Origin: a virus
Reading direction: 5' to 3' (one strand)
IMG/VR virus record: IMGVR_UViG_3300047325_000170
Location: 1-64,000 of that record
Length of the DNA: 64,000 nucleotides
The position numbers were made by a program, and so were the translations under genes. The notes below the pieces were generated by a model, which was not told the DNA's origin, ran no database searches, and saw only the letters and a program-made list of their open reading frames with translations. This document shows, piece after piece, positions 39,384 through 64,000 of this stretch; position 1 is the first letter of the stretch; every line of letters starts with the position of its first letter.

Positions 39384-40630
39384 TAGTCGGTCGTTCCTAC
39401 GGGGATACCGCTCTTGCTTCCAGCGTTGGTAGGATCATTATACTTCACTTCTCGCCGCTGGTTGATCTTCAGCTTCCCAAGCTCGGTTGAACGGGCCTGG
39501 TACTGCTTCCAGCTTCGTGCGACGACCACAAGGTAGTGGTCATTCTCACCATGGTCAATGGGCTTGTAGGGATCAGTTACCCCACGGCCGATGGAGGGAT
39601 TAACAATACCCGCTCCCCCATTATACGCGCGAATGATCCAGAGCGGATTCATATTTCCTGGTGAGTTGACATACTGTGTGATAAGAAGGTTGACGTAGGC
39701 AGCGCAACACCAAATACTCGTCGTTGCGTTGCGGGGATCTTTCTTCAGCGTGGGGTTCTTAGCAAAAGCGGCCGGGTAGGCATCGCCATTGAAGGTATTG
39801 GGCTCGAGCTGGCAGAGACCCATAGCTCCGGTGCGTGAAAGAGCTTGTGTGTCACCATGTGATTCATTCGTAAGGATTGCGGCAATGAAGTTCGGGTCAA
39901 TGTTGTAGGCAATCCCCGCTTGGTTGATGTCAAAACGGTAGGCATAACAACAGCAGCTGGGATCGCAGTTGAAGCCAGAGGCCCCATAGTTCATCCCGGC
40001 TGGGGTAAGGCTATTCCCGTCGAATGGGCCGCCAAACCCGCCGCCTGATGTGCCCGGCGCAGAGACGCCCGTATTGTCAAAACCCCCAACGAGGGTGGTA
40101 CTACCCGTTAAGGTTTGGGGCGTCGTCCCGGTGTTTTGGAGCTCAGCAATGACATGTTGCACGGGCGGGTGCAAGAACTGATAGGAGACCGGGGCGCACT
40201 CGGAGGGCTTCCCGCCATCGTAGAGGATCTTCACGGCGAGGGGTTGGCCCCCGTCCTTAAGATAGTGAATGAGATCGCTGCGACGACTTGCCTCGATGTT
40301 ATTGATATGCATCGGCAAGTTGTAGATCCACTTGTTCCCTTGTGGTGTACGAACTCGGACGTCGAGGAGAACGTCATCGTTCTGGAAGCCATCGACCCGT
40401 CCGAAGAACCCGGCGATGTAAGTCTCAAAGGATTGAATAGCGGAGGCGAGGGTGTACCAGAACTCTTGGGGCGTGTAGCTTGCGCCGGTGGTGAAACGGC
40501 TGTAGCTTCCTCCCGGTGGAGTCAGATAGGCCTCTCCCGTGTCGGGATAGAGCGTGACGCGGCGCGCGGGATCAACGACCTTCTCAAAGATCTCTTGTTT
40601 GAACTTGGTCCGGTTGTTGATCTGACTCAT
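39383..40630 (-). CDS. Tail-associated lytic transglycosylase (SLT domain)
   Basis: IDPNFIAAILTNESHG (catalytic E-S), SRTGAMGLCQL and RAYNGGAG motifs. Confidence 0.9.
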   Translation of the reverse strand: MSQINNRTKFKQEIFEKVVDPARRVTLYPDTGEAYLTPPGGSYSRFTTGASYTPQEFWYTLASAIQSFETYIAGFFGRVDGFQNDDVLLDVRVRTPQGNKWIYNLPMHINNIEASRRSDLIHYLKDGGQPLAVKILYDGGKPSECAPVSYQFLHPPVQHVIAELQNTGTTPQTLTGSTTLVGGFDNTGVSAPGTSGGGFGGPFDGNSLTPAGMNYGASGFNCDPSCCCYAYRFDINQAGIAYNIDPNFIAAILTNESHGDTQALSRTGAMGLCQLEPNTFNGDAYPAAFAKNPTLKKDPRNATTSIWCCAAYVNLLITQYVNSPGNMNPLWIIRAYNGGAGIVNPSIGRGVTDPYKPIDHGENDHYLVVVARSWKQYQARSTELGKLKINQRREVKYNDPTNAGSKSGIPVGTTD

Positions 40631-41098: not shown

Positions 41099-44000
41099 CT
41101 AGGTGCGCGTTGCGATATGGATGTGGGCACCGGTTCCACGATCAATAAACATGATCGTGCCATCTCCAACATCGGTCCCTGCGGGGGTCGTCAGTTCAGC
41201 GAGCTGGCCCGCATCGTAGTAGCTGTTCACACCGATCTGGGCGACATTGTATCGTTCGGCGAGACGAATGAGTCGCAGTCCAGCCGGAGGGGTTGCGGCA
41301 ACATTAATCATCGGCCCACCGTTCTCGCTGACGAGACCGATATCGATGGCCTGTCCCTTGTAGTGATAGGACCCCGTCCCCGCCCCGAGATCTCCATGGG
41401 AACGTGCTGCTGCTGCAGTCATATAGACCGAGATGCCGTTCTGTGTGAGGAAGTTTAAGAAGGAGATGATGTCATTGCTGACACCTTGGCTTGGCGGGGC
41501 GGTCTGTTGTGTGAGGAGCTCGGTCATAATCAGTGAGCTTTCCCATTGGTGCTTACTGATAATGGCCATACGCGAGGACGTGCTGTAGCTGGTTCCACCG
41601 CTAAGAAAGGTGACGGGATTGGCAACTGACCCGCTCTCCGTTGGAACAGCGATGCCGGCAACCGGAGCAACAATGACCGATTGCGCGGGCGAGGCTGTCT
41701 CTAAGCCCTTTGCGAGGGTGGCATGAACCATGTCTCCCCGTGGCTGAATGGCCCCCAATTGACGGAGCTTCTCTTTGTCCGCGTCACTGATCGTGAGCGA
41801 CGTATCTCCGGGGAGGGCAGCCTGTAGGACAACGGACTCCGAGTGTCCGTTCAGGCCTGCTTGAAGTTCCGCCCCGCGATACTTGAGAAAGACCATGACA
41901 AGGGAGGTCTGGTCGTCCCAGTACCGTGAGATCGCAGTCCATGCGTACCCAAAGATAATCTGGAAGATGACGTTCGCCGCAAGGCCAATGGGATTGAAGC
42001 ATGAGATGATGCGGGCTTCCATGAGGATCGGGAAGAGCTCTGCAGCGAGTCCTGCAAGGCGCCCACCGGCGACGGCGAGATCTTCGGTGACTACAGCTTG
42101 GATGCTCTTCTCACCGACTTGCCCAAAGGCATCAGCAAGGATCTCGGTGAGATCAGCTCCCGCGCCAGCAAGGGTCTTCGAGGTGAGGGTCGTTGACTCG
42201 CGGGTGAGGAAGTTCAGGACGCCGCGCTTGGCAATGACTTCCGCCGCGGTCCGGTTGACTGCTTGATCGAATGTCCCGTTCGTGAAGTTCAGGAAGTTCT
42301 TGGCAATGGCGTCCTTGATAGCCGCATCGAGGATCTCTTCGCCATTCTCGTCGATAGCTTCGGCAAGAACTTCGTTGATGATCTGGGCGGCTGTCTCACC
42401 GGAGACTTTCTCGACGCCAGTCTTCCCAAAGATTGACCGTGTCTTACTGACGGCATTGCTGATGTTCTGGGCGAGTTGCTGGTACTCGCTTGCAGTGGTT
42501 CCAAAAGATGATTGCACGGAGGTCGAGACACTTGTGCTTCCGGAGAGAACACGATTGAGCCCATCGAGGATGAGGTTGCGGATCTGATAGGTGAGGAAGC
42601 GGGGTTTGAACGTCGAGACCGCTTTGCCTCCGATCTTTAGTTCGTAGCCAGTCGGGGGCGGTTTGCTGCCGCCCTTCAGAAACGAGAAGATCCGCTGGGT
42701 GATGTTCTGCTTGGTGACCTTTACGCCAAAGTTGAAGAGTGACTGAGAGAATTGCTTGGTCCCTTGACACAGGGCCCACTTTGCTCCCAAGAGACTGACC
42801 ACGTCCGCCGCAAGGTAGCCGCCAAACCAGGCCCACATCGAGCTCCAGTAGTTCTCACCCTTTACTTCGCAGAGCATGTCCGGCTCAATCGAAGTCACAT
42901 ACCCGACATCGAAACCGAAGTGATGAGTGACCTTGCGCACTCCGCACAGTCCTCGCACGTCCGTGTAGGTGTCGTTGAGGTACATGATGTCGTAGGGCTT
43001 GACTGTCGGATCTCCAAGGACAAGCACCTGCCCTTGGTACATGAGCTTTTGGTAGTCACGCAAGATCGCGCGCGCCATCTGGCGCATGTTCTCCTCGGTG
43101 ATCCAATGCCCCATGCCGCCGGCAATCGAGAAGTCGGTGCCGGGGATCCCGATATTCTCTGCCCAGTAGCCGACAAGGTCGAGCCCCAAGCTCCCGATAA
43201 TGGCCGCCTTGGTTGGCGCAACGTCGAGACCAAGGACGTCGGTGTTTACAATCGCTGTCTTGCGGAAGGCCGAGGAGATCTGCCGGTCAACGGTCTGATG
43301 AACAGGCTTGGGCGTCGGGCGTGAGGACTGATAGCCCTGGCCGTTGTACCACATGGCAATGACGTCCGTGTAGGTCTCTTCGTCTGAGGCACGGATCGTG
43401 TTCGTTAAGAGGTTAGACGTTGAGCCATAGTAGTGGAACTGGCAGAAGGTCTTGGTCTTGTAGCCGACCGGGTAGCCGTAGAAGCGATCAAGCCCCGGGT
43501 CCGCTTGCCCGAGATCGTAGGCGGAGACGCGCTGGTAATCATAGCGGAACTGATAGTAGGGCGCTCCAAAGAAGAGGGTCGAGCGGTACTCGAAGGGCAC
43601 GACGGCCGCGACGTAGGGCGGGAAGTATTGTGCCATCGTGGAGATGACATCCCAGCAGGTCTTGTTCTTCGTGTACATGTTGAAGGTAATGCCCGGCGGG
43701 TGTGGGCCCATGAGTTGCGTCTGTCCCACGTCAGGGAGAGGCGGCGCGTCAAACTGTCCCGAGCTGGGATTGAACCCACCCTGGGCTGCCTTCGCTTGAA
43801 CGTTATCGATAGCCGTCTTTACACTGTAGGGATTGGCAATGACACCAGCGGCTTGCTGCGCAAAGTAGTTGACGCCAACTGCTGATGAGAAGCTGCCAAC
43901 TTCTCGGAAGAACTTCGAGAAGGGGGTGTAGATCGAGTAGACGTTCTCGCAGGTCTCACCGTATCCCGATGGGATTCCTTGGTTGAGCATGTTCGCGGTA

Positions 44001-47000
44001 TTGCCGACCAGAGCAGCCGCGATGCCCGCAACCTTGTACGTTTCCGCAAGCTTCGGTTGCCCTGCCGCTCCCGCAACCCCCGCCGCCGTTGTAAGACCAG
44101 CCTCGAGTAAGCCACCCGTAAGAAAGTTGATACCGGCGAGGGAGGCTTGGTACACATAGTCGGTCAGGGTCTTCGAGGGATTGGTGAACGGCGCCACCTT
44201 CCGGTAGGCGCTGATCTGCTGGGGCTGATTGATCACGTGCGTGTCAGGGTCGAGAACGTCGATGCCCTCAGGTCCATTGTCACCAATTGCGTCCCAGAAC
44301 TGGAAGAGGTAGGGGTTGCCGAAGTGGCTGATACCAATGGGGTTCTCGGCCCATGCGCCGCCTTGGCTTGCACTATAGATGTCGTGCTTGATGAGGTTCC
44401 AGAACTTCGTCCCAAGACTGTAGTCGTAGAGCTCTTCGCCGTGGGAGTTGAGCATCTGCCCAATGATTTCACGTGGCTCGTAGGTGAGATCCATCATCTC
44501 ACCGGTCGGCGCCTGACCGTGCACGAGACGGTTCCCATCAGCAAGGAGTCCCGGAAGGAAGCCGCGGTCGGGTCGGTTGATGGAGTTTGTCTCGGATTCG
44601 GCAGAGGGGATCAGCTTCGTGAGCTCGATTCCATCACCAACTGCGATGATCTGCACCCGCTCGCCGAGACCGACCTCCGCAATACGTCCATTGAAGAGGA
44701 CCGGGAATTTGGCGCCGTTTGAACCGTAACCCATGCGGATGTGGACGCGCACGCCTGGCGCAAGCATGACCTGACCTTGCTGCTTCTTGCGCTGTTCAAT
44801 TTGCTGCTGAACGACACTGTCCGTCCCGAGCAGCAGGCGGATCGGGTTGACGAATCCCTCGACCCAGCGATTGATGTTGTTGCGGATGTCGTCGGTGGCC
44901 GCAAAGACCTCGCCCATGTTGAAGCTTACTGCGCCCTTCGCCACGCTGAGTGCGGCAGTCCCGAGATTGCTGAGAACCGGGATCGTATCTCCGTTGTAGT
45001 TGTAGAGCGCTGAGAGCATATTTGCGCTCAGCTGGAACTGCGTGTAAGACGAGAGATTGCCGTAGGTGTTCATGATCTCAATGATGGCGGTATGCATCGG
45101 ATCCCGGCGATCATTGATGATGTCTATGGATTGGATAGCCTGGAGGGCATAGAGATTCGGCATGAGGTTTTGCCAGCCGATCTTCGGGCCTTCGTCCATG
45201 AGCTGAAAGACGTAGGTGGGGTAGGCTTGAACGAGCCGCCCCGTCATGTCGTGTTCCATAAGATCCCGAAGCATGGCGATCATACGCCCATGTTCGTCGA
45301 TCTGCTGTGAACCAACATCGACGGGATGGTGACTCTGAAGCGCCTGATTCAGGTAGGCTCGCGGGTCCTTCCCATCTTTTTTCTGTCCTAGGATCTCTTG
45401 TGCGGAGTCCTGGACCGCCGCCGGAAGTCCGGGGATTTTCAGCCAGGATGCCGTCCCGTAGTTCCCGGCATTGACACCATAGCTATTTTCTCCCGGGTGG
45501 GTAATCTGGACCGACTGCCCGTCGACCTGAAGCGTCGCTTGGTAGTTGCTTTGCTGCGTGACCGTGGGGGTAAACTGATTCGTAGCCGTTTGGGTGCCGT
45601 TGTTAATGGTCGGCATCGTTAGTGAGCCAACGAGATTGGTGTGGCCGCGCTGCGGACCTGATTCCCAGGCAGTCGACGGCCGCCCTTGATTCGTATTGTC
45701 GCTACCGGGTGCTGCCTCGGGAGCCGTTGCGCCCATCGCCTGAGGATCAACCCCGTAGAGACCGCCCGCCGGATGCTCATCAAAGAGAGACTGCCGAACC
45801 GCTTCGCTAACGGAGCCAGTGATGTTGAGAGCGATAGTTCCGTTCTGGTTGAGGGTGGAGATTTGGCTCGCGACCTGAGCAAGGTACGATGAGGTAGCCG
45901 CTCCGAGGGGGTTGATCGGAATGTTCAGCTTTTCGGCGAGGAGCTCGTTTGGGTAATCGATGTAGAAGTCAGGATCGACGAAGCGACCCTGGTCAGTCCA
46001 ATACTCCCAGCGCAGTTGCTGCATGGCGAGCTGCGCCTGTGCCTCACCGAGCTGCGATGGGTCGAAGATCTCTCCGTTCTGAAGAGCTGCCTGGATACGC
46101 TCGAAGGTCGGAAGCTCGAGGTCAGGATAGAGCTCGAGGTAGGCCATCTGTTCTTTTGCTTCCTGAATAGGCGCAGCCGCAAACCACGCATTGACCGGCC
46201 GACCGGTTGTATCGAAGCCATTGTTGCCCTTGTCACCGGTTGGTTGACGGGGGTCCTTGGCAGGGTTGTAGTCGTTGATATAGCGCTGCCAGAAGACATA
46301 GCGCGGATCGGTCCCGGCGCTGATGGGTCCAACTTCGCCCGAGACCCCTGAAGGCAACTGCTCGTTGATGAGCTGGGGCAGGAGCGCTGCGCCCTTCACG
46401 GCTTCAATACGGCGTTGATGACGCTCGAAAGAGATCATCTCAATCGCGACGGTAAAGATGTTGGGATAGCCCTCGACGGGTTCCGACACAATGTTCGTGA
46501 AAACGACATTATGCACGCCCATAAGGGAAGCGATCTCATTCTCAAAGCCAACAAAGCCGGCAACGAGTTCATAGCGTGCCTCGCGGGCATTGGTACGAGC
46601 GTATTCAACCATTGCCCGCACGGAGTCGAGTGCCGCGAGGGTCAGTGCGGTGAAGGTAACGGTGAAGCGAACTTCGCCCCCTCCCATGTGTTGGTAGCCC
46701 GGCGTCTCATTCGCTGGAGAGCGCACCATCACAAATGAGTTGTTGATCTCGGCCGAGATGCCGGTCATGATCAGGTCGGGTGTATCCCATGGACGCATCC
46801 GTGCCTTGGCGTCATCGGTGAAATTGGTGATTTCAGCGAGAAGGTTCTCGAGCGCTTCGTAGATCGAAAGCTTCTCACTCTGTGGCAAGATCTTCACCGC
46901 ATCGCTGAGGGCATAGGTCTGCCAGCGGTTGTACTGATCGTGAAGATCAGAGAGCCCCTTCAGCCATGCGCTGTCGACAACCGTGAATTGAAACTGGGCT

Positions 47001-47794
47001 GACATGGCGTCGAATGGTTCGCGAGTACTGATGAGGTAGGGCTGCGAAGCAGTCAGTCCATTAAAGGTCTGTTGTTCCGAGGTGGTAAGGGGGGCCGAGC
47101 TTGGAAGATCGGGCCATTTCGCACATACGCGCCACTGCCCCGGCAGCCATTCCGCATAGGCTTGCTGCCAGTACCAGCGTTGTAAGGGGTAGATGAAAGC
47201 GGAGTCAAACTGATAGGGCGGGATCGATGAACAGAAGGTGCCGATTTCGAGAGCCTTACACCACAAGACAACAGCAAGCGCGTTCGGGATCTGTTGTCCA
47301 TCCTTGGTACCGGCCCGGAGGAAGAGCCGCTCGAGCGCGAGGACATGAACCCCATTCGAATTGAGGTACGTGTTCGTGACGGGCAAGATGGGCGTGCGCT
47401 TGAATTGAGCAATCAGACTCGCGATACTGCGATTGTCGATAGGTGGCGAGCTTAAGTAGCCCCCGCTGACGCGACGATTATCGGGATTAGGATCAACTTC
47501 TCCGGTCGAGAGTCCGAAGACATCATAGGCACTCGTGACTTCAAACTCGATCTGGACGATCTTCTCCACAAAGCCGGTGGACATGACAATACCGCCCGTT
47601 GTCCGAGGGACCGGTTCGACGTGGTTGTTGGAGACATCCGTGAGAGAGATACGGTACGGCGGGACCGTCGCGGCAAAGTCTCCGATACGAAGGTAGTCTT
47701 CGTTACCGATGAGCTCCCCGTCCAAACTGCGGTCAAAGTTGATCGCGAGGAGCTGGGGGAAGTTCTCATCAGAAGGATAGCGGAGGAGAGGCAA
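41099..47794 (-). CDS. Giant baseplate hub-like protein with C-terminal M15-type peptidase domain
   Basis: 2231 aa. PGVRVHIRMGYG...LFNGRI and YQGQVLVLGDPTVKPYD...VRKVTHHF...GYVTSI are gp27/GpD hub-like. C-terminal GSYHYKGQAIDI...HIHIA. Confidence 0.75.
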   Translation of the reverse strand: MPLLRYPSDENFPQLLAINFDRSLDGELIGNEDYLRIGDFAATVPPYRISLTDVSNNHVEPVPRTTGGIVMSTGFVEKIVQIEFEVTSAYDVFGLSTGEVDPNPDNRRVSGGYLSSPPIDNRSIASLIAQFKRTPILPVTNTYLNSNGVHVLALERLFLRAGTKDGQQIPNALAVVLWCKALEIGTFCSSIPPYQFDSAFIYPLQRWYWQQAYAEWLPGQWRVCAKWPDLPSSAPLTTSEQQTFNGLTASQPYLISTREPFDAMSAQFQFTVVDSAWLKGLSDLHDQYNRWQTYALSDAVKILPQSEKLSIYEALENLLAEITNFTDDAKARMRPWDTPDLIMTGISAEINNSFVMVRSPANETPGYQHMGGGEVRFTVTFTALTLAALDSVRAMVEYARTNAREARYELVAGFVGFENEIASLMGVHNVVFTNIVSEPVEGYPNIFTVAIEMISFERHQRRIEAVKGAALLPQLINEQLPSGVSGEVGPISAGTDPRYVFWQRYINDYNPAKDPRQPTGDKGNNGFDTTGRPVNAWFAAAPIQEAKEQMAYLELYPDLELPTFERIQAALQNGEIFDPSQLGEAQAQLAMQQLRWEYWTDQGRFVDPDFYIDYPNELLAEKLNIPINPLGAATSSYLAQVASQISTLNQNGTIALNITGSVSEAVRQSLFDEHPAGGLYGVDPQAMGATAPEAAPGSDNTNQGRPSTAWESGPQRGHTNLVGSLTMPTINNGTQTATNQFTPTVTQQSNYQATLQVDGQSVQITHPGENSYGVNAGNYGTASWLKIPGLPAAVQDSAQEILGQKKDGKDPRAYLNQALQSHHPVDVGSQQIDEHGRMIAMLRDLMEHDMTGRLVQAYPTYVFQLMDEGPKIGWQNLMPNLYALQAIQSIDIINDRRDPMHTAIIEIMNTYGNLSSYTQFQLSANMLSALYNYNGDTIPVLSNLGTAALSVAKGAVSFNMGEVFAATDDIRNNINRWVEGFVNPIRLLLGTDSVVQQQIEQRKKQQGQVMLAPGVRVHIRMGYGSNGAKFPVLFNGRIAEVGLGERVQIIAVGDGIELTKLIPSAESETNSINRPDRGFLPGLLADGNRLVHGQAPTGEMMDLTYEPREIIGQMLNSHGEELYDYSLGTKFWNLIKHDIYSASQGGAWAENPIGISHFGNPYLFQFWDAIGDNGPEGIDVLDPDTHVINQPQQISAYRKVAPFTNPSKTLTDYVYQASLAGINFLTGGLLEAGLTTAAGVAGAAGQPKLAETYKVAGIAAALVGNTANMLNQGIPSGYGETCENVYSIYTPFSKFFREVGSFSSAVGVNYFAQQAAGVIANPYSVKTAIDNVQAKAAQGGFNPSSGQFDAPPLPDVGQTQLMGPHPPGITFNMYTKNKTCWDVISTMAQYFPPYVAAVVPFEYRSTLFFGAPYYQFRYDYQRVSAYDLGQADPGLDRFYGYPVGYKTKTFCQFHYYGSTSNLLTNTIRASDEETYTDVIAMWYNGQGYQSSRPTPKPVHQTVDRQISSAFRKTAIVNTDVLGLDVAPTKAAIIGSLGLDLVGYWAENIGIPGTDFSIAGGMGHWITEENMRQMARAILRDYQKLMYQGQVLVLGDPTVKPYDIMYLNDTYTDVRGLCGVRKVTHHFGFDVGYVTSIEPDMLCEVKGENYWSSMWAWFGGYLAADVVSLLGAKWALCQGTKQFSQSLFNFGVKVTKQNITQRIFSFLKGGSKPPPTGYELKIGGKAVSTFKPRFLTYQIRNLILDGLNRVLSGSTSVSTSVQSSFGTTASEYQQLAQNISNAVSKTRSIFGKTGVEKVSGETAAQIINEVLAEAIDENGEEILDAAIKDAIAKNFLNFTNGTFDQAVNRTAAEVIAKRGVLNFLTRESTTLTSKTLAGAGADLTEILADAFGQVGEKSIQAVVTEDLAVAGGRLAGLAAELFPILMEARIISCFNPIGLAANVIFQIIFGYAWTAISRYWDDQTSLVMVFLKYRGAELQAGLNGHSESVVLQAALPGDTSLTISDADKEKLRQLGAIQPRGDMVHATLAKGLETASPAQSVIVAPVAGIAVPTESGSVANPVTFLSGGTSYSTSSRMAIISKHQWESSLIMTELLTQQTAPPSQGVSNDIISFLNFLTQNGISVYMTAAAARSHGDLGAGTGSYHYKGQAIDIGLVSENGGPMINVAATPPAGLRLIRLAERYNVAQIGVNSYYDAGQLAELTTPAGTDVGDGTIMFIDRGTGAHIHIATRT

Positions 47795-47818: not shown

Positions 47819-50800
47819 CTACGAGCGGCCTTTCAACTGATCACTCGCGTCCTTGTCACGGTCGCGGGTCGTGCGGCGTGCGTCTTGCATATCGACGTTC
47901 ACCTGGGCCCCAATGGCGTTGCTGATCCCGGCACGGAGCGCTTCGGGGCTTGACATGTCCCCGTTCCGACTTGCACGTACCTGGATGTTGTAGCTCTGGG
48001 CCGAGCCACCGGTGTCGTTACTCATGACGCGGGTGCGGCCGCCCGTTGGGGGCTTGGGCATCTCGGGGGCGTCGCGGATCTCCCCGCTCTGTCCGAAGGT
48101 CACGGCTGCGGTTGCCAGGGCGCCTGCGCCAAGGCCGGCCATGACCCAGGGGTTCCGGAGTTTCTCCATCACCCCGCTCATTGAGAGCTTCTTTGCTATT
48201 TTAGCACCATCTTCGACCATTGAGCTAGCGTTTTGGGTGACCGGGGCCGAGATCATGTTCTCGGTGAGGTCCTTGGTCTCGGGCAGCACGGACTCTGGGA
48301 TGCTTGCCCCGATCTTGGGTTCGGTCAGAGCTTGGCTTGCTGCCTGTGCCTCTTGCATGCGCTCTTCGGTTGTTCCGGCGGCGTCGATAGCCCCACGTCC
48401 AAAGATCCGTGAGAAGATGTCAACCGCGCTCCGGCCGACTTTCTTCCCTGGGTTGGTAATAGTGCGCACCCAGTCCCCGGCATTCGCTAGGTCAAGTGGC
48501 CCGGCGCCGTTCTTCATGGCGGCTTGAGATTTCCAATTGACCGGTTCGGTAAAGGATTCAAACCAGGAGATCTCTTTGCCCCACTTGTCAAATTTCGGTT
48601 CCGCAGCCTGGCCAGTTTTCACCATGTCTGTGAAAGCCTTGAGGGCTTGGTACTTCCAGATATCCTTACCGGCTTCCATGTCCTCCTTGGCGCCCGCAAG
48701 GAAGTACTTGTCCATGTAGCTATCAACGTTCATGGAGCCAGCGCTCGTTTGCAGCAAGCCGCTTTTTTTGTCATAGAGGTCCTGCGTCTTGTCGATCACC
48801 GATGCTCCCGCCACGCCCGGGACACTCACGGGCTTGCCAACCGACTGCTGTTGAAGGAGCGTGGTGAAAGCGTAGGGGTCAAACTGATTGCCGCCCTTCA
48901 CCTTGAGGAACTCTTCACGAATGATGCCCGCGCCGGTATACTGCAGCGCTGCTAGCTCTCGTTCTTCTGGACTTGCTGCGGTGTTCTTGATCGTGTTCAT
49001 GAGCCGGTCTTGGATAGGCGTCGTCACCGCTCCGATGAGACCCTGCGCACTATCAACCTCGTGCTGCTCGAGGATCCTCTCCATCGTGCTCATCTTTAAG
49101 ATTGGGAGATTGGTATGATAGTAGTTCTCAAAGTTGGCGAAGAGCTCTGCTGTTTTGGGCAGGTTCGCTTTGATCTCTTTAAGGGCGGCTTCATGCCCTT
49201 CCCACGCTGCAACCTTGGCCGTCCATGCCGATTCGAATTGCCCGTGCAATTTCTGCATGATCGCCCGATTGATTTTCGTTCCCTCAAGCATGCCGGCAAG
49301 GACAACACGGACCTTGTCACCGTCCGAGTCACCATAGAGTGCCTTACGCAGACTGTCATGAACGTAGAGGCCAAATCCCTTGATGGTATCGTCGACATAG
49401 ACCTTTGCGCCCATACGACCGTAGATCGCATTGGGGTCGCGGTGCACGGTTGCCCAGAAGAACTCTTGTCCCCGCTCGTCTTTCAGCAAGCTTTGGCCCG
49501 GGACAGCGCCGATTTGTTTAGCAAACTCCCGAGAAACCTTGGCGCTGAAGGGTTGGAAGGACGCATCGTCCGCCCAGAGGGACTGCTGAAGGGGTGCCTT
49601 TAAGAAGCCCTTCCCGCTGAAGTCGAGGCTCTTGTAGAGGTTGTTAAGGAGACCCTTCTTGCCCTTGATCTGCGTTGCAAGCGATTGCTGGTAGGACTCA
49701 ATAGATTTATTGAGATCATCCAGGTGGGCAAGATTCTCAGGATCGATCCGAGCGCTGAGCGCAATCACGCGGTCGAGGGCGCGTTGCGATTCGGAGGGAC
49801 GGTAGCCACCGCCCTTTACGTCGGTGAGATCGGGGATCTCATCGGGGGCGTAGAGCCGCCGCCCGTTTCCAATATCGATATACTGTGCGCCACGCCCATA
49901 GCGTGCGAGGTATTCGTCCTTTGAGAGGACGTTCTTCGGTGCTTGTTCGCGTAGGGCGATCTGTTCGGCGGTCATTTCTGTTGCGCCGGTCGCATTCCCG
50001 AATTTCATCGGATTTTGGTTGGCTTCATACGCAGAGAGGTATTGGTGGAGCTTGTAGGCTCTCTTCTGAGTGGTCGGGTTAGCGAGGTAAGAGGTCTTGA
50101 GATTCTCAGCCTGGAGAAGGAGACCCTCAGCCTCGTAGGCCTTAATGTCAAAGGCCTGCATACCGGCTTCGTTCCGCTTGGGATTGAGGCGTTTGTGCTT
50201 TGCGTAGAGCGCTTCTTCCGCTGTCATGTCCGTCGTGGGCGAAGGATCATTGATGACGCGAGTGGCCAGCATCGACTGTTCATACTGCACGCGGTAGCGG
50301 TTCCCGCTCCGTGAGGTGAAGTTGGTTGTTTGGAGTAATTCCATGCCGCCGCTCGGATCGATCTTCTGTCCGAGCTCGTTCATCATGCGCTTCGCTTCAA
50401 GGGCCTTCGCCACGTTGGTCTCATCAAAGCGATGTTTGCCGGAGATCGCTCGGTTGACGACGTAGCCATTCTCGATGCTGAACTTCATACCGAGACCAAG
50501 CTGATCGAAGATCTCCTGCAACCCTTGTTGAAGAGCAAGGGCCTTCTGGGGATCCTTGCCAGCCCGCGCCATCATCATATTCATCTGACCGCGGACGAGC
50601 ATGCCTGCGCCTTCGTGCTTCTGGAGGGTCTTCACGAGTGGGACGCCAGAGAAGATCTTGACGAAGTCATCGTCCCAGGTCGTTTTCCCACCGTTGATGA
50701 CGACGGTGTTCTTCGACATATCGGCCATGATCTTCATGTTGTGAAGATTGGCCCCGGCCCCGAAGGCCTCGTTGATCTCGGGCTTCGCGATGGCCTGTTG

Positions 50801-53557
50801 TTCGTAGGCCCCCATCACCTGCATCATCTCGTCGGTCCCAAGAGTACGGACAACATTCCCCGCCTCGTCGAGCTCCTCGCCGCCAACGATGAAACCCATG
50901 CCGACATTGCGCTGGTAGGTGGGGTCTGCGAACTCCTTCCCGAGGCGGGACTCTACGCGTTGGAACTGCGTCATCGCAATCTCGTCCTCTGAATTGCGCA
51001 GGGGCACGGCATTGAACTCTTGTTGTGGTCGCGCCCAGGGATTACCACCGGGGACCACGTCTTGATAGATCGCCGCTGCGACGGGAGATCCCTGACGGCC
51101 CGCCTTATTACCAATGATCGCGAGACCCTCGACCCCCTGTCCGGGAGCGGAGCCTTGAATCAGCCGCGTGCGAATCCGCTGCAGTTGCCGGTTCTTGACG
51201 GACGTATTTGAGCCGATGGTATTGAAGATGCGATTTGCAAAGCTTCCCTCGAAGCCGCCTCTTTCATCCTCTTTGTTTAAGAACTTCTCTTGAACTGTGT
51301 CTCCGCCGGCGCTTTCATAGAGGGCTTTTGCAACGGCATTACCTTCCTTGGGTTCGATACGTCCGTCCTCTGCATTTTGAAAGAACTGCCTGAAGAACTT
51401 GTCGCGGTTGATGCGACTCTTATCGGTTGTGGCAAAAGCATAGATTGGATTGATTGTCGACTCTGGCAAGAGCAAAGCATTATGAACGAGGAGTTGTTCT
51501 TGTGTCTGAACGGCCGACGCGGAGATAGCAATCCCGGGATCCTCGGCCGTGGCATCAAGGACGCCCTTCCCGAGCTCAGACGTTGCTTGGTCAAAGAGTC
51601 CCATGTCGAGTTTGCGGACTGCGCGCTGCATGCGGCGGCCGACCGATGCGAACATGACTTCGGTGGCTGAGAAAACATGGAGTCCGCCTTGGATGCGGTT
51701 CTGCGCCGCAATCTTTCGTGCCTCGGAGTAGTTATTAAATGTCTCCGGTCTGACATGAACTGTCTGATATTTCAGTCCTTGGTTGATGAGCTCGTTATCG
51801 TCGAGGAACTCGCTTCCCCGGCCCGATTGCCGTAGGACGAGGTCACTGACGCCAAGGTACTGGCCGATATATTTGCTCCCGCCGGCCGTTTGGAAGACAC
51901 CGTTGACGTCTTCAACGGGAAGGAAGAACTGAGCGGCCCCGCCGGTTCCTTTTGAGATGGCAGCGTTCTCGTGGGGAGCAATGTGAACCCAGACACCGAA
52001 TCCTTGGCCACCGCCCTTGAGAGGGTTCGACTCTTGGAAGGAATAGGAGACCTTCCACTTCGCTGCACGCGGGACCGATTTTCCGTCCTTCTGCTCAAAG
52101 CTTTGAAAGAACTTGATACGTTCCTGAAGATAGTCGAAGGCGGCTTCACGGTTTCCGCCGATGTTGCCGTTCCCGAAGGCGACGATGCCTGTTTTCTTCT
52201 CAAAGGTATCAAGGGCCCGAAGCCGCGCGCGTACATGGGCGGCTTCATCGAACTCATTGACCTTGCCGGTCCACACTTTCTTGCTACCTTCTTGCTTCAT
52301 CTCGAAGACTTCGCGTGAGGTAAGCTGCGCGATGTGGGACTCAAGACCACCGGGGATCTCTTCCGTACCCATCTTGAGGCCCATATGCTGGCCTTGTTGT
52401 TCAAGGTTTTCAAAGTGCCGGCGGAAGAAGCCAAAGGCTCCCTCTCCGGTGAAGGCTTCGCGCCGTAAGACATCCGCCCCGTGGGGCATGCCAAGGCCAT
52501 TCACTGAGGTTTGCATCGCCTCGAGAACAGGGTTCATAAAGCGCTGCCACATCTTCTTGCGCAGAGCAGCGCGCATCGCTGGATGCTGGGCCGGATCTCC
52601 CTTGATCCGGCCATTCTTTACCAGTCGTTGCCATTGGTTCTCAAAGGCGGTCTCGAAGGTGTTGTAGATTGCCCGGCTCATCGCTACATTCTGGGGAGCG
52701 ACGAAGCCCTGCATCACCCGGTTATAGAGGCCCTGTGCATCCTTCGTGTAGACGCCGCCGATCCCGCGACTGCGGATCTTCGGGACGATCCCGCCATCGT
52801 CGGTTGTGACCGATCCGCGCTCGAGCAGTGCCTTGAAGCCGTCGGGATTGAGGAATTCGTGGGGCGACTTCTCATCATTCGTCACGCCACTGAGGGCCAT
52901 CATCGTGCGCTGATGAGTCATGATGAGATCCTGGAAGCGGATCTGGCGCGCGGTCGCCTTGGTCTGTGCCATGTTAAACATGAGCTGACCGACATCTTCG
53001 GGGTTCATGGTTGCAGAGAAGCTCTTGCCAAGCTTTCCTATGGCGCCCTGGGGGACGATGTTCATCGCCACCTGTCCGCTCTCGGTGAGCGAGGAGCTAA
53101 CCTTATAGACTCCAAACTGCTTGGTCAACTCGGGGTCCATGAAGCCAGCAGCACGTAGAGAATCCGTCATGACGTAATAGCCAGAAGGAAGCTCACCTTG
53201 CGCGATCTTGGCAGCGGTCTGAGCGCCGGCTGTTTTCATCTCCTCAAGGCGTCCCGCAGCATTGGCGGCCCTCTCCGCCTTCGTCTCGGGAGTGAAACGG
53301 AAGTCACGTAAGGCAACTCCCATGTCCATGTCGCGGATCTTCCGCCGCGCCGAGGTGAACTCAGGGAGATCCTTGGTGGAGGGAACCTTTGTGATCATGG
53401 CTTGCCAGACATTTGTGCCGCCCTCTTTAACAAACTTCCAGAGGTTTGCCGTCGCCAGATAGCCGCTGCCCCGCATCTTCATATAGACCCCACTCTTGGT
53501 GGTGTCTGCGCCTTGGGCTGGAGCGTAATTCTTAACTACCTTGTCGTAGAGAGACAT
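47819..53557 (-). CDS. Putative single-chain virion RNA polymerase (two-barrel, beta'-like catalytic core)
   Basis: 1912 aa with colinear beta' motifs SLATQIKGKKGLLNNLYKSLDFSGKG, VHRDP (R1373) and YGDSDGD (D1410/D1412/D1414; nt 49316-49333). Confidence 0.8.
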   Translation of the reverse strand: MSLYDKVVKNYAPAQGADTTKSGVYMKMRGSGYLATANLWKFVKEGGTNVWQAMITKVPSTKDLPEFTSARRKIRDMDMGVALRDFRFTPETKAERAANAAGRLEEMKTAGAQTAAKIAQGELPSGYYVMTDSLRAAGFMDPELTKQFGVYKVSSSLTESGQVAMNIVPQGAIGKLGKSFSATMNPEDVGQLMFNMAQTKATARQIRFQDLIMTHQRTMMALSGVTNDEKSPHEFLNPDGFKALLERGSVTTDDGGIVPKIRSRGIGGVYTKDAQGLYNRVMQGFVAPQNVAMSRAIYNTFETAFENQWQRLVKNGRIKGDPAQHPAMRAALRKKMWQRFMNPVLEAMQTSVNGLGMPHGADVLRREAFTGEGAFGFFRRHFENLEQQGQHMGLKMGTEEIPGGLESHIAQLTSREVFEMKQEGSKKVWTGKVNEFDEAAHVRARLRALDTFEKKTGIVAFGNGNIGGNREAAFDYLQERIKFFQSFEQKDGKSVPRAAKWKVSYSFQESNPLKGGGQGFGVWVHIAPHENAAISKGTGGAAQFFLPVEDVNGVFQTAGGSKYIGQYLGVSDLVLRQSGRGSEFLDDNELINQGLKYQTVHVRPETFNNYSEARKIAAQNRIQGGLHVFSATEVMFASVGRRMQRAVRKLDMGLFDQATSELGKGVLDATAEDPGIAISASAVQTQEQLLVHNALLLPESTINPIYAFATTDKSRINRDKFFRQFFQNAEDGRIEPKEGNAVAKALYESAGGDTVQEKFLNKEDERGGFEGSFANRIFNTIGSNTSVKNRQLQRIRTRLIQGSAPGQGVEGLAIIGNKAGRQGSPVAAAIYQDVVPGGNPWARPQQEFNAVPLRNSEDEIAMTQFQRVESRLGKEFADPTYQRNVGMGFIVGGEELDEAGNVVRTLGTDEMMQVMGAYEQQAIAKPEINEAFGAGANLHNMKIMADMSKNTVVINGGKTTWDDDFVKIFSGVPLVKTLQKHEGAGMLVRGQMNMMMARAGKDPQKALALQQGLQEIFDQLGLGMKFSIENGYVVNRAISGKHRFDETNVAKALEAKRMMNELGQKIDPSGGMELLQTTNFTSRSGNRYRVQYEQSMLATRVINDPSPTTDMTAEEALYAKHKRLNPKRNEAGMQAFDIKAYEAEGLLLQAENLKTSYLANPTTQKRAYKLHQYLSAYEANQNPMKFGNATGATEMTAEQIALREQAPKNVLSKDEYLARYGRGAQYIDIGNGRRLYAPDEIPDLTDVKGGGYRPSESQRALDRVIALSARIDPENLAHLDDLNKSIESYQQSLATQIKGKKGLLNNLYKSLDFSGKGFLKAPLQQSLWADDASFQPFSAKVSREFAKQIGAVPGQSLLKDERGQEFFWATVHRDPNAIYGRMGAKVYVDDTIKGFGLYVHDSLRKALYGDSDGDKVRVVLAGMLEGTKINRAIMQKLHGQFESAWTAKVAAWEGHEAALKEIKANLPKTAELFANFENYYHTNLPILKMSTMERILEQHEVDSAQGLIGAVTTPIQDRLMNTIKNTAASPEERELAALQYTGAGIIREEFLKVKGGNQFDPYAFTTLLQQQSVGKPVSVPGVAGASVIDKTQDLYDKKSGLLQTSAGSMNVDSYMDKYFLAGAKEDMEAGKDIWKYQALKAFTDMVKTGQAAEPKFDKWGKEISWFESFTEPVNWKSQAAMKNGAGPLDLANAGDWVRTITNPGKKVGRSAVDIFSRIFGRGAIDAAGTTEERMQEAQAASQALTEPKIGASIPESVLPETKDLTENMISAPVTQNASSMVEDGAKIAKKLSMSGVMEKLRNPWVMAGLGAGALATAAVTFGQSGEIRDAPEMPKPPTGGRTRVMSNDTGGSAQSYNIQVRASRNGDMSSPEALRAGISNAIGAQVNVDMQDARRTTRDRDKDASDQLKGRS

Positions 53558-60012: not shown

Positions 60013-60714
60013 TTACAAGCTTACGATAGAGCGATTGGGCGCATTGATATCAGTAGCGATGAACTGGAACATCTCTTGGATGTTTTCACCAGAGAGGTCG
60101 ATGCGTTGGCCGACCGACATCAGGCTGACTCCCTCAATCGTACGGACGCGTCCGCTATTACGAGCAGTGATGTCAATACTGTCGATATCTCCGTAGACGA
60201 GCAAGATCTGAAAGTTCGTATTAGTGAAGTAAGGAACACGCGAGAGATCGGTTTGCCCTTGGTTGATGATCGTCTCGAGATTGCCCCAGTTGATGTTCTT
60301 TTGATTCTGGATCCACTGTTGATAGCCGGTCGGGTCCGTCTGGGGGTCCGGCATCGCCGTTGGGGCATAGGGATTCGGTTGAAGGGTCTGCGAGGCGAGC
60401 GGCGCCGCTTCTTGGTCATTGATGCTATTGACCAACTCATGGAGGTAATCGCCCGGCCGCAGGTTGATACAGAAAGACCCCTGGACGATACGCGTCCCTG
60501 GGATAATCCTATTAGCAGTATAGGATGCGTAGGAATAGATTGGGTATTGGTTTTCGGTCAACGCGCATTGAAACTCACAGATTTCGTCGATGTAATTGCC
60601 AGCCAAGAAGAGCGAGACGTCAACCCCGGAGAAGTATTCAACAGGATAGACTTCGTTGTAGGCCGGTGTGTAGGGGTTGACCTGCGCCCCGCGGTAGGGA
60701 GTGATGAAGGACAT
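60013..60714 (-). CDS. Tail tube-like protein 3
   Basis: YFSGVDV...PIYSYAS...GTRIVQGSFCIN...FQILLVYG...IEGV...FIATDI; divergent paralogue of the tube. Confidence 0.75.
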   Translation of the reverse strand: MSFITPYRGAQVNPYTPAYNEVYPVEYFSGVDVSLFLAGNYIDEICEFQCALTENQYPIYSYASYTANRIIPGTRIVQGSFCINLRPGDYLHELVNSINDQEAAPLASQTLQPNPYAPTAMPDPQTDPTGYQQWIQNQKNINWGNLETIINQGQTDLSRVPYFTNTNFQILLVYGDIDSIDITARNSGRVRTIEGVSLMSVGQRIDLSGENIQEMFQFIATDINAPNRSIVSL

Positions 60715-61364
60715 TAGGCGATGACGGCCCCGGAACTAACCACCGTCGGATAGGCTGGTTGGAGGGGAACGTAGTCGAGAGCGATGTAGGACATCTGCTC
60801 CTCAAGGATCAGGTCATCGATACCGGCAGTTATGCCATTCGTGACAATCTCAACGCCGATGATCTTCGCGAGCGATGACTGCCCATACTCATTGACCATG
60901 GTGATTGTGATATCGAAAGGGGGAACTTCGTCCGCCTGCATGCGGGCAATGACTGCGGGAAGGTTTCCCGTTGCCGTCGAGTAGTTCGTATTGACCTGTT
61001 GGTAGTAGCTCGAAACCGCGTTCTCGACGGCGTAGAGGCTCTCTCGGTCAAACATCGTAAAGATCAGAGATCCCGCAATGGTCCGGCAGCCACGGGTGAA
61101 GCCTCGGGGGTTGATGGACTTTAAGGCGCGGACCGGCACCTTGTCACGGTGGGTCGAAATCGAGACCGTCTGGAGGGTCGCAATCGTGATCGGAGCGGTG
61201 ATCAGGGGCGAGGGGTTAAAACCCACCCCCGGCTGATACTGGTCATTGGTCAGCATCGGGACCGTAATCGAACAGACGATGTCGCAGCCGGCGTAGCTCG
61301 AGAAGAGCGACGTCATGTAGGCGTTGGGGCCAGTCGGGAGCATGGCGGGCAGGTAGCTAGACAA
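60714..61364 (-). CDS. Tail tube-like protein 2
   Basis: SYAGCDI...LQTVSISTHRDKVPV...GFTRGCRTIAGSLIF...VPPFDITITMVNEYG. Confidence 0.8.
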   Translation of the reverse strand: MSSYLPAMLPTGPNAYMTSLFSSYAGCDIVCSITVPMLTNDQYQPGVGFNPSPLITAPITIATLQTVSISTHRDKVPVRALKSINPRGFTRGCRTIAGSLIFTMFDRESLYAVENAVSSYYQQVNTNYSTATGNLPAVIARMQADEVPPFDITITMVNEYGQSSLAKIIGVEIVTNGITAGIDDLILEEQMSYIALDYVPLQPAYPTVVSSGAVIA

Positions 61365-61400
61365 GGCTCATCCTAGAGGTGGAGCTAAACTACGCTAGCC

Positions 61401-61434
61401 AAAACAAAGAAGGGAGAGCCGAAGCTCTCCCTTC
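61401..61434 (-). terminator. Rho-independent terminator after the major tube gene
   Basis: Minus strand GAAGGGAGAGC-TTCG-GCTCTCCCTTC-TTTGTTTT: 11-bp stem, cUUCGg tetraloop, U-tract. Confidence 0.9.
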
Positions 61435-61465
61435 CAGAGTATCACAAAAGCGGGGTCTTTGCCAG

Positions 61466-62236
61466 TTAGGACGTTTTGCCGGTCTGGCCGTTCGGGGTAA
61501 CCGAGGACTGGCTGATGGGCGAGCTGGTGTTGGCGATACCGCTCGTGTAGAAGCCAGGGCGCAGACGCTGTGCCTTACGGGCGATGAAGGTGCAGGCACG
61601 CTCGAGGTTGATGTCGTCGATGGAGACGCCGGTTCCCTCGTTGAGGATTTCGACGTCTTGGATGATCATGTTCGCGGCGTTGCCATATTCGTTCGCGAAG
61701 GTGATCGTGATGTCGAAGGGTGGGACCTGATCTTCGTAGGTCCAGAACTCACCAGGCTGGTCGCCGTGGAGTTGGACGAAGGGCGTGCTGTTCGCGGCAA
61801 CCTGGGCGGCGTTGGCAGCATTGAACTGCACGACCGTCGAGAGGTTGTTGAGTGTCGAGTTAAGCGGGAGACCGTTGTAGACACCGGCTTGGTTGACCAG
61901 GTTCGTTGGCTGGGCGTTGACCTGGATCACACCCTGATTGCCGGCTGCCGTGTACTGTGGGATCGTGCCGAATTGAGCAGCTGCCTGCTCCATTTCGACG
62001 AGAAGCGCGTCGCGGTCAAACATGACGAAGACGAGATTCCCGGCGATGCCACGCTTACCGCGGCTGAAGGAGAGCGGGTCGGGGTCCCCGAGGACATAGA
62101 TGGGACCCTTCTCACGCTGAATGTTAATCGTGATCGCCTGGAGCTCTCCGATGACCTGCCCGTTGAAGGTGGCAATGGCGTCCGCACCCGAAAAGCTGGT
62201 GTAGGTGCCGTCAGTGCCCAGATTGAAATTTGCCAA
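61466..62236 (-). CDS. Major tail tube protein
   Basis: Follows the sheath gene. YTSFSGAD...GELQAI...REKGPIYVLG...FSRGKRGIAG...VPPFDITITFANEYG. GAGGT RBS and its own terminator. Confidence 0.85.
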   Translation of the reverse strand: MANFNLGTDGTYTSFSGADAIATFNGQVIGELQAITINIQREKGPIYVLGDPDPLSFSRGKRGIAGNLVFVMFDRDALLVEMEQAAAQFGTIPQYTAAGNQGVIQVNAQPTNLVNQAGVYNGLPLNSTLNNLSTVVQFNAANAAQVAANSTPFVQLHGDQPGEFWTYEDQVPPFDITITFANEYGNAANMIIQDVEILNEGTGVSIDDINLERACTFIARKAQRLRPGFYTSGIANTSSPISQSSVTPNGQTGKTS

Positions 62237-62289
62237 GAGTCATACCTCTAGATAGAGCTACCTGAGCTCCAGGTTCTAGCACTAACCTA

Positions 62290-63969
62290 TTAGGTTACTC
62301 CACCTTGTTGGCTGCTGCTGCCGGACTGGGTGATCGCTCCCGGTGCAGTGAGCGAGATCGTGACGTAGATCTTCCGGATCTGCAGAGCGGGAACGAGCTG
62401 CAGGTTGATCTGGAAGGTACCGGCGATCTGGTTCGCTGCCGTAGCGTTGATGTTCCAGGTGTAGTCAAGCAGGGCACCTGAGCTCTTGAGAGCCGCGAGT
62501 GCGGAGTTGACGGCGGTACCCATGGCGTTAATCGTAGCGGGGTTGGCTGCTCCGCCGATGAAGCCGGCGCAAGCCTGACGGACCGCTTCCATCGAGGCGT
62601 AGGTGATACGCAGCGTGGAGAGCTTGGCGAAGTCTCCACCAGAGACTTCGTAGGTCTGGTCAGCAACCGTGCGGACCGATCCCTGCTGGGTGTTGAAGAC
62701 CACGAAGCCCGGACCGGAACCGACGAGGGTGTTGATGACCGAGGCTCCGTAGTTGTAGGAGAGGCCGACAACCGAAGAGAGGGTCTTGTTCGTCATACCG
62801 ATTTGCGGCTGGATGGTCGTCGACTTTCCAGCGTAGGTTGCGGCGCCGTCCATGACGTAGTTGCCAAGGCGCTGGTTGTTGAGGATCGGGTCGGGACCGA
62901 CGCAGATGTTGAGCAAGTACCCGATGTTCAGAGCCGCACCCGCCGTGGTCAAGACCTCAGCGTTTGAGACCGCCGGGCTGTTCGTGTTGTAGCCCGAGAG
63001 GTAGTTGAAGTTGTACTTTGTTAACGCCAACTGATTGCCGCGACGAACCGCGTTCGTGAAGGTCGGCACCGAGAGGGGAGCAACTGAGATCACACCGTAG
63101 CAGGACTGGGTATCGACCGAGACGCGCGCACAGAACTGCGCGAGATTCTGACCGAACCAGACCGTATCGCCGCTGTTTGCATTGGCGATGGTTGGGTTGC
63201 CGGAGGCATCGAGCGCGTAGGTGGGCTGCAGGTAAGCACCCAGGGGGCAGACGACGTCCACGCCGTAGGTCTCGAGCTGCATGTAGGCCGCAACGAGCGC
63301 GTCATTGTACTGCGCATCGGTGAGGTTGGTGCCGTCGTTACCACCGCTGAAGTTGGTCGGGCCAGAGTTCACAACGTTGATCGTGGCGAGGGGGTTCCCT
63401 GACGTGCTCGCCTGCGTTGCGACAACGTTGATCGTCGAGAAGTTAACCGCGTTCATCAGGTCGCCCCAGATGCCGCCCACCGGGATCGGGAAGGCGTGCG
63501 CGACGCCATCGAGGGTCGTGATGGTCAGAGATCCAGCGCCTGTGCCGGGAGCAACAACCGTTGCCGTCAGGCCATTGTACTTCACGCCGGGGTAGTTCGC
63601 GGTGAGGGTCACGCTATTCGCGGGGGTGACCGTGTCGGTGATAACAACTGAAGAACCCGTGCCCGAAACGCGCACGAGGTTGATGTTGGTGCAGCCAGCT
63701 TGGAAGGCTTCGTAGACGCCGCGAGTGAGCGACTTCGCCAGAATCGGCGCAGCCGTAATCGACGGCGCTGCCGTGGTGATCCCGAAGATCTGCTCGGCTT
63801 GAGCAATCGAGGTGATCTGGATCGGCGTGTAAAGGGGGCCGTCCGTCGCCACACCAAGCAGCAAGACTGCGTCGGTGAGATTCTGCGGCGGTTGTGCAAC
63901 CTTGAGGCCGAAGTCCTGAATCTGGGCTACAAAGCCTGGAGTATTCGGGTAGATGTCGGAGATTGGCAA
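62290..63969 (-). CDS. Contractile tail sheath protein
   Basis: YPNTPG...LLLGVATDGPLYTP...AEQIFG...NLVRV, FSGGNDG and C-terminal INLQLVPALQIRKIYVTI. Start moved to TTG 63969 after an AAGGAG RBS. Confidence 0.9.
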   Translation of the reverse strand: MPISDIYPNTPGFVAQIQDFGLKVAQPPQNLTDAVLLLGVATDGPLYTPIQITSIAQAEQIFGITTAAPSITAAPILAKSLTRGVYEAFQAGCTNINLVRVSGTGSSVVITDTVTPANSVTLTANYPGVKYNGLTATVVAPGTGAGSLTITTLDGVAHAFPIPVGGIWGDLMNAVNFSTINVVATQASTSGNPLATINVVNSGPTNFSGGNDGTNLTDAQYNDALVAAYMQLETYGVDVVCPLGAYLQPTYALDASGNPTIANANSGDTVWFGQNLAQFCARVSVDTQSCYGVISVAPLSVPTFTNAVRRGNQLALTKYNFNYLSGYNTNSPAVSNAEVLTTAGAALNIGYLLNICVGPDPILNNQRLGNYVMDGAATYAGKSTTIQPQIGMTNKTLSSVVGLSYNYGASVINTLVGSGPGFVVFNTQQGSVRTVADQTYEVSGGDFAKLSTLRITYASMEAVRQACAGFIGGAANPATINAMGTAVNSALAALKSSGALLDYTWNINATAANQIAGTFQINLQLVPALQIRKIYVTISLTAPGAITQSGSSSQQGGVT

Positions 63970-64000
63970 GTCACTCTCTCCTTGAGAGGAGATCAACAAA

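Follow-up and report, generated by a model that had tools for sequence, protein, structure and literature searches.

Two-barrel RNA polymerases (RNAPs) that are delivered with the virion are known in three settings: the crAss-like phages, the phiKZ-like jumbo phages, which carry an enzyme of several subunits in the head, and a single Thermus siphovirus, in which the enzyme is fused to the tape-measure protein. Considered here is P0001, a protein of 1912 residues encoded on the minus strand at positions 47819-53557 of a 64,000-nucleotide stretch of viral DNA (the window; positions 1 to 64,000 of IMG/VR record IMGVR_UViG_3300047325_000170). P0001 is probably a single-chain two-barrel RNAP that occupies the tape-measure slot of a contractile-tailed phage, and as such would be assembled in the tail, ejected at infection and used to transcribe early genes.

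The experimentally proven tape-measure-fused virion RNAP is gp96 of Thermus phage P23-45 (PMC10770324). The tail of P23-45, a siphovirus, does not contract, whereas the phage considered here has a sheath. In gp96 the RNAP forms the N-terminal ~1200 of 5002 residues, and a long ruler that includes a metallopeptidase comes after it, whereas the core of the much shorter P0001 lies in mid-protein. Unlike the P23-45 arrangement, P0001 comes second in a pair of giants encoded between the tail chaperonins and the baseplate hub; beta'-specific motifs (GKxGL..., R-x-P) are retained in P0001, and no homology to gp96 was detected beyond the barrel. The crAss-like phage phi14:2 is a podovirus-like phage that packages its enzyme, gp66, in the capsid. 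P0001 resembles gp66, a single-chain two-barrel virion RNAP of ~2000 residues that was found through its DFDxD motif (10.1101/2020.03.07.982082). The phages phiKZ and AR9 are contractile-tailed, as this phage is, and own beta/beta'-like enzymes (PMC7598289, PMC7824862); these consist of four to five polypeptides encoded outside the tail module and carry a flap (sandwich-barrel hybrid motif, SBHM) insertion, the virion form being packaged in the head, whereas P0001 is one chain in beta-then-beta' order with no flap. The virion RNAP (vRNAP) of coliphage N4, a podovirus, is analogous in function, as an ejected giant that transcribes early genes, and has a T7-like single-subunit palm fold that is unrelated to the fold of P0001.

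An earlier reading of the window made from the sequence alone (the sequence-only reading) had proposed an RNAP beta' catalytic core within this open reading frame (ORF). The ORF is real and lies on the minus strand, which that reading left out. All four peptide strings that it quoted occur at the residues given (APDEIPDL...RVI at 1237-1265, SLATQIKGKKGLL...GKG at 1292-1317, HRDP with R1373, and GDSDGD with D1410, D1412 and D1414), and the block that they form, at window positions 49316-49849, falls inside the range of 49300-49860 assigned to it. In hhalign, residues 1289-1420 pair with E. coli beta' 323-470, and the motifs of the two line up (28% identity, 128 columns, pairwise E 0.026 against a single beta' sequence), and residues 1339-1423 align with P23-45 gp96 residues 719-792, the DFDGD barrel of that proven virion RNAP (E 0.011). 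The spacing from R1373 to D1410 is 37 residues in P0001 and 35 in E. coli beta', exactly as claimed. The parallels drawn with beta' for the blocks from GKxGL to GDSDGD are seen in that alignment, of modest significance; that of the first block, APDEIPDL...RVI, is a resemblance by eye. Among ORFs of at least 150 codons in the 111-kb contig, P0001 alone carries a D-x-D-[GQ]-D motif.

A second, beta-like region precedes the beta'-like one and contains GAYEQQ (916-921), K-x-MADM-x-K (K942, K949), KHE (980-982) and RG (989-990), with RPQQ (843-846) just upstream. Comparison of the P0001 family with E. coli beta by hhalign gave a non-significant match (E 0.65) of the C-terminal EVWALEAYGAA...LTVKSDD block of beta to the conserved IREE-x-LKVK, which is not relied on. 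Only ~25 residues separate GAYEQQ from K-x-MADM-x-K in P0001, whereas ~250 residues, flap included, lie between GYNFEDS and GDKMAGRHGNKG in E. coli beta; the beta-type barrel of P0001 is therefore read as minimal and flap-less, on the basis of the sequence and of the aligned ranges of the structural matches.

The family is small. An exhaustive HMMER search with residues 1000-1700 against 1.84 billion representatives found only seven proteins, P0001 included; a word-based search of 5.8 billion clusters returned the same closest two relatives, and another, started from the distant member P0006, returned P0006 alone. The members are metagenomic "hypothetical proteins" from JGI, ENA, NCBI and Logan, ~1850-2200 residues long (one is a fragment), and the relatives are 19-36% identical to P0001. 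All seven keep R1373, P1375, G1380 and the three aspartates; the triad, claimed to be intact in P0001, is thus retained in every homologue. The five full-length closer members share in addition K942, D946, K949, K976, K980, H981 and R989, the block G1299-K1300-x-G1302-L1303 with G1315 and G1317, and E1548/K1552-V1553-K1554. In two more distant members the triad reads ADFDGD (P0005) and NADFDGD (P0006), which is the canonical beta' signature; in P0007 it reads GDTDQD. No match was found by tblastn in 50,697 phage records with P0001 (E<=1e-5), with its core motif region (E<=10) or with P0006 and P0007, nor did scans by single members or family alignments find one in IMG/VR, JGI metagenome contigs or GTDB genome contigs; the genomic context of the family is that read from one contig.

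Profile libraries do not recognize these proteins: P0001 has no match in Pfam or PHROGs, none of the seven members has one in Pfam even at E 10, PDB sequences queried with P0001 and with the family profile gave none, and six-frame searches of the contig with PF00623 and PF05183 were likewise negative. None of the curated models by which two-barrel membership is judged (PF00623, PF00562, PF04997, PF05183) detects the family, and the claim for P0001 is limited to the superfamily, rather than to a curated family, because models of this kind likewise missed the enzymes of P23-45 and crAss, which are proven.

Structure prediction, which the sequence-only reading had proposed as a check, points to the same fold. 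Two AlphaFold2 models were built from alignments of 6-7 sequences, one of residues 800-1650 and one of residues 850-1120. The larger is poor (predicted local distance difference test, pLDDT, 50), and ~47 of its best 50 Foldseek matches in PDB are RNAP largest subunits, among them that of the AR9 non-virion RNAP (nvRNAP; 7s00_d, E 0.013), E. coli beta', Pol II, Pol IV and the phiKZ nvRNAP, which supports a double-psi beta-barrel around GDSDGD. The smaller (pLDDT 64; predicted template modelling score, pTM, 0.66) covers the part least backed by sequence motifs. Two separate domains of P0001 match the two different RNAP subunits in the right order and fill the tops of the lists, with AR9 and phiKZ nvRNAP subunits among the best matches for both barrels (7s00_d, 7s00_C, 7ogp_C). 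Among the best 50 matches the structures of crAss gp66, QDE-1 and P23-45 do not appear, an absence that is not to be read as exclusion. By predicted structure and sequence, P0001 has a beta'-type barrel bearing the D-x-D-x-D triad and a beta-type barrel bearing two conserved basic residues, and a two-barrel architecture is very likely.

The record that includes the window is linear, 111,160 bp long, ~70% complete (CheckV) and 58% G+C. Its minus strand carries a full structural module with terminase, portal, protease, major capsid protein, two sheath paralogues, tube proteins, three giants and baseplate J, and the nearest relatives of the sheath are in Moorella phage MTATph1 and Bacillus phage 0305phi8-36; judged by its genes, the phage is a distant relative of 0305phi8-36. 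The surrounding sheath, tube and hub genes confirm that P0001 belongs to a contractile-tail structural module, as had been proposed; the further placement between the tape measure and the hub was mistaken, as P0001 lies in the tape-measure slot itself. That slot is bounded by the tail chaperones and the baseplate hub, and synteny with 0305phi8-36 gp143-gp147 and with ME3_33-37 of Acinetobacter phage vB_AbaM_ME3 (ME3) puts P0001 between the gp145 and gp147 homologues, where, like gp146, it comes second behind the chaperonin genes. In 0305phi8-36, gp146 is annotated as "hypothetical tape measure protein", and gp145 and gp146 were both found in virions by mass spectrometry.

P0001 and gp146 have in common their flanking genes, a lack of cysteine, a C-terminal hydrophobic helix and a similar C-terminus. 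P0001 residues 1835-1897 align with gp146 residues 2457-2516, the two having no other alignable part, and in the slot proteins of the 0305phi8-36 lineage only the last 60 residues are conserved (Hardies et al., PMC2147016). The P0001 family compared with gp145 by hhalign gave nothing. P0001 and its 1728-residue neighbor have no cysteine in 3640 residues, against 0.66% cysteine in the other 43 genes (P ~4e-11), and within the contig such extreme depletion is confined to these two slot proteins. The same lack of cysteine is found in gp145, gp146, ME3_35, ME3_36, the MTATph1 coding sequences (CDS) 26, 27 and 31 and every relative of P0001, whereas the hub and other structural proteins do contain cysteine. 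Freedom from cysteine together with the hydrophobic helix would mark proteins that are assembled in the tail tube and expelled from it.

At 2537 residues gp146 is longer than P0001 and, unlike it, has no D-x-D-x-D motif, and 0305phi8-36 encodes its RNAP in a separate gene of the non-structural arm, orf99/gp99, of the RdRP-family (RdRP, RNA-dependent RNA polymerase) type PF05183 (PMC2147016), for which this contig has no match. The polymerase core is thus a feature of the P0001 family of slot proteins and not of the slot. The MTATph1 slot gene (OR602862 30512-37868) also has no D-x-D-x-D motif. It is apparently split by a transposase flanked by CDS27 (1309 residues) and CDS31 (313 residues), the latter with the hydrophobic helix and the conserved C-terminal tail; all pieces are free of cysteine.

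A possible relative is found in a cultured phage. Among predicted viral structures, the larger model has significant Foldseek matches to proteins that are unnamed or uncharacterized, A0A7R7G2L5_2 (E 5e-6) and A0A172Q021_2 of phage ME3 (E 2.5e-5), with weaker matches to a protein of Microcystis phage MaMV-DC and to nudivirus LEF-9. The ME3 tail module has the same synteny, its gp145 and gp147 homologues flanking the slot gene, gene 36 (KU935715 33172-37983); the "hypothetical" product of gene 36 (ME3_36) is free of cysteine and has 1603 residues, which fits two BFVD pieces of ~802 residues. Where P0001 reads HRDP...VYVDDTIK...YGDSDGD, ME3_36 reads SREP (1173-1176)...VVLDSTID...GGDHDQD (1217-1221), and R1174-E-P and D1217/D1219/Q1220/D1221 are invariant in seven relatives of ME3_36 (36-99% identity). 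Profile-profile comparison of the two families places these motifs in register (E 4.9e-4, 225 columns). Other comparisons were negative: ME3_36 as a single sequence against the P0001 family profile was not significant, neither the ME3 nor the 0305phi8-36 genome gave an HMMER match to that profile, and direct comparison of the ME3_36 family with E. coli beta and beta' gave none either. On balance a distant homology of ME3_36 to P0001 is favored. ME3_36 also has NKGRANVGTGNKAS near residue 883, which by eye recalls the beta motif DKMAGRHGNKG. The uncharacterized BFVD entries A0A7R7G2L5_2, A0A7D5YKQ3 and A0A075BUT7_2 (MaMV-DC) match the model of the RNAP core at E 5e-6 to 4e-3.

A candidate promoter for such an enzyme is found at the other end of the contig, outside the window. 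The motif CACG-N5-6-AGDGG occurs 18 times in contig positions 100,001-111,160, against 0.77 expected (none of 200 dinucleotide shuffles reaches 18), and once per strand in the rest of the 111 kb. All but one of the 18 are on the plus strand (CCACG-N5-6-AGDGG, genome 100,216-110,284), ahead of small ORFs; 14 of these 17 lie 7-79 nt (most 17-56 nt) upstream of an ORF of 43-180 codons preceded by a ribosome-binding site, and often a strong hairpin with a pyrimidine run, resembling a terminator, is directly 5' of the element. Sites of sigma-70 type are not enriched in this region (3 found, 3.5 expected; the consensus of the host may differ), and family searches of the contig detected no sigma factor and no RNAP of T7, RdRP or beta' type. 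The element fits a phage-specific promoter of an early-gene cluster divergent from the structural genes; an operator or RNA element would look similar. A strict hairpin was rejected for the element itself, the pairing of CCAC with GTGG being broken in the AGAGG and AGGGG variants.

The following course of events is proposed. The beta-type barrel (residues ~870-1100, with K942 and K949) and the beta'-type barrel (residues ~1290-1430, with R1373-x-P1375 and the metal-binding D1410, D1412 and D1414) would form one active site, and the C-terminal hydrophobic helix and ~60-residue tail would assemble P0001 in the tail lumen, adjoining the hub. Contraction of the sheath at infection would expel P0001 through the tube along with the 1728-residue gp145-like protein. 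Acting on the incoming DNA, P0001 may then transcribe the group of small early genes located at the opposite contig end, with start sites probably at the repeated element. The proposal builds on the presence and invariance of the motifs, the fold similarity of both barrels, synteny with virion-proven proteins, the similarity at the C-terminus, the lack of cysteine and the enrichment of the element; that P0001 is active, copies a DNA template, travels in the virion, is ejected and uses the candidate promoter is suggested by the synteny, the lack of cysteine and the promoter-like array, and by analogy with P23-45 gp96, crAss gp66, the phiKZ vRNAP and the N4 vRNAP.

The pairwise E-values are modest, and chance may in principle have produced the resemblance, with short acidic or glycine-rich motifs turning up in a long protein and low-confidence models being over-read. 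This is very improbable, as two independent domains match the two RNAP subunits in the correct order at the top of the lists, and the motifs are collinear with those of beta' and kept in all relatives; the invariance across seven members, the ADFDGD and NADFDGD members, the uniqueness of D-x-D-[GQ]-D in the contig and the hhalign alignments with beta' and with P23-45 gp96 all argue the same way. A genuine RNAP-like core might instead persist as an inactive structural relic in a tape-measure or ejection protein that measures or plugs the tail or forms an entry channel. The slot of P0001 is that of gp146, itself without D-x-D-x-D, the C-terminal anchor and hydrophobic helix are as in tape measures, and P0001 has no profile-level similarity to RNAPs, all of which would suit a relic; it is nevertheless improbable, since relics normally lose the metal triad, R-x-P, GKxGL and the two lysines that are here invariant in proteins otherwise 19-36% identical, and the ME3_36 family keeps R-E-P and D-x-D-Q-D invariant as well.

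An active enzyme need not be a virion enzyme, and P23-45 and phiKZ also own non-virion RNAPs, so that P0001 could be an unpackaged polymerase for middle or late genes that merely happens to be encoded in the structural operon. The exact synteny with two virion-proven giants, the C-terminal tail common to P0001 and gp146, the extreme depletion of cysteine in just the two slot proteins and the overlap of the P0001 start codon with the stop codon of the gp145 homologue make this quite unlikely. Nor is it expected that the two barrels serve another kind of nucleotidyl transfer, as in an RNA-dependent RNA polymerase, a primase-like enzyme or a DNA-pulling motor: the superfamily takes in RdRPs and PolD, the nearest named Atlas cluster is an RdRP and the template type is not readable from sequence, but the structures matched best are those of multisubunit, DNA-dependent RNAPs, the tail- or virion-delivered two-barrel precedents are DNA-dependent RNAPs, and a promoter-like array stands ahead of the early genes.

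Beyond the reading of P0001 as an ejected RNAP, a wider scenario can be put forward only tentatively, in which a 0305phi8-36-like branch that includes ME3 turned its slot protein into a minimal, flap-less, fused beta-beta' RNAP, nearer to the multisubunit enzymes than to RdRP or YonO, that is carried in the tail lumen, may be the first protein into the cell and may transcribe early genes with CCACG-N5-6-AGDGG as its promoter while the DNA is still emerging; this would be a second, independent fusion of tape measure and RNAP.

A 2021 survey found jumbo phages without RNAPs apart from the phiKZ-like phages and two cases of YonO type (PMC7824862), and a 2026 review makes no mention of a tail-slot RNAP. 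The assertion in the sequence-only reading that no characterized myovirus has this arrangement needs qualification, as virion RNAPs are known in the myoviruses phiKZ and AR9 in multisubunit form; the single-chain tail-slot form is new. Because the P23-45 precedent and the multisubunit matches differ from it, what is new is a probable single-chain, beta-then-beta' RNAP in the tail slot of a contractile-tailed lineage. If the proposal is true, delivery of a transcription enzyme in the tail lumen evolved on at least two occasions, and giant "hypothetical tape measure" proteins deserve a search for hidden enzymes. The family is almost invisible (seven proteins in 1.84 billion, with no profile match), and comparable enzymes have therefore probably been missed by surveys concluding that RNAPs are absent from the majority of jumbo phages (PMC7824862). 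A minimal flap-less fused beta-beta' architecture also bears on the relationship between single-chain and multisubunit RNAPs. Should the homology of ME3_36 hold, the hypothesis could be tested in an isolated, cultured phage, with the 17-copy element as a candidate promoter for it. Coordinates are given in Table 1.

Table 1. Features of P0001 and of the neighboring tail genes; positions are those of the window, and gp numbers refer to Bacillus phage 0305phi8-36.
Feature	Position	Strand	Basis
P0001, candidate single-chain two-barrel RNAP in tape-measure slot, no Cys	47819..53557	-	
Beta-like double-psi barrel region, residues 850-1120	50198..51010	-	
K942...K949, candidate basic pair of beta-type barrel	50711..50734	-	
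Residues 1237-1265, APDEIPDL...GGG...RVI; parallels beta' LPPDLRP...GG...RVI	49763..49849	-	by eye only, outside hhalign alignment
Residues 1292-1317, SLATQIKGKKGLL...SGKG; parallels beta' block	49607..49684	-	hhalign and family invariance
Beta'-like catalytic barrel core, HRDP (R1373, P1375) to GDSDGD (D1410, D1412, D1414)	49316..49441	-	
Hydrophobic Gly/Ala-rich helix, residues 1804-1822, kept across P0001 family	48092..48148	-	
C-terminal tail, residues 1835-1912, like last ~60 residues of gp146	47822..48055	-	hhalign E 0.004
2231-residue gp147 homologue (baseplate hub with cell-wall-degrading domains), downstream	41099..47794	-	blastp
1728-residue Cys-free giant, gp145 homologue, upstream of P0001	53557..58743	-	blastp, 30% identity over 1473 residues
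Two tail-chaperonin homologues, gp143/gp144-like, 158 and 248 residues	58756..59982	-	blastp
gp142-like protein, two tail-tube paralogues (gp141-, gp140-like), tail sheath	60013..63999	-	
233-residue protein, gp142 counterpart			blastp
216-residue protein, gp141 counterpart			blastp
256-residue protein, gp140 counterpart, tube			blastp, 38% identity

Nearly all of P0002-P0006 and P0008-P0010 end in (L/I/M)(K/Q)GR-COOH, and P0001 ends in KGRS (KGR, residues 1909-1911, at window 47825-47833); blocks of the form Y-N-[IV]-x-V-[RK]-A and V-N-V-x-D-x-R precede the KGR of the family. By its sequence, the terminal motif could be an assembly or cleavage signal.

Some neighboring genes have features of their own. 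Residues 976-1111 of the gp145-like giant (window 55411-55818, minus strand) match phrog_1706, 'CRISPR/Cas system associated' (E 1.7e-10), and faintly DUF3854. The C-terminal ~70 residues of the hub protein resemble by eye the zinc site of peptidase M15/VanY (H-x-x-x-G-x-A-x-D ... H-x-H), and the hub gene is followed by a separate SLT transglycosylase gene (39383-40630). Outside the window, between the capsid and the neck and sheath genes, is an ORF for 3306 residues (genome 70,251-80,171, minus strand) with faint PHROG matches; the counterpart region of 0305phi8-36 encodes candidate curly-fibre proteins.

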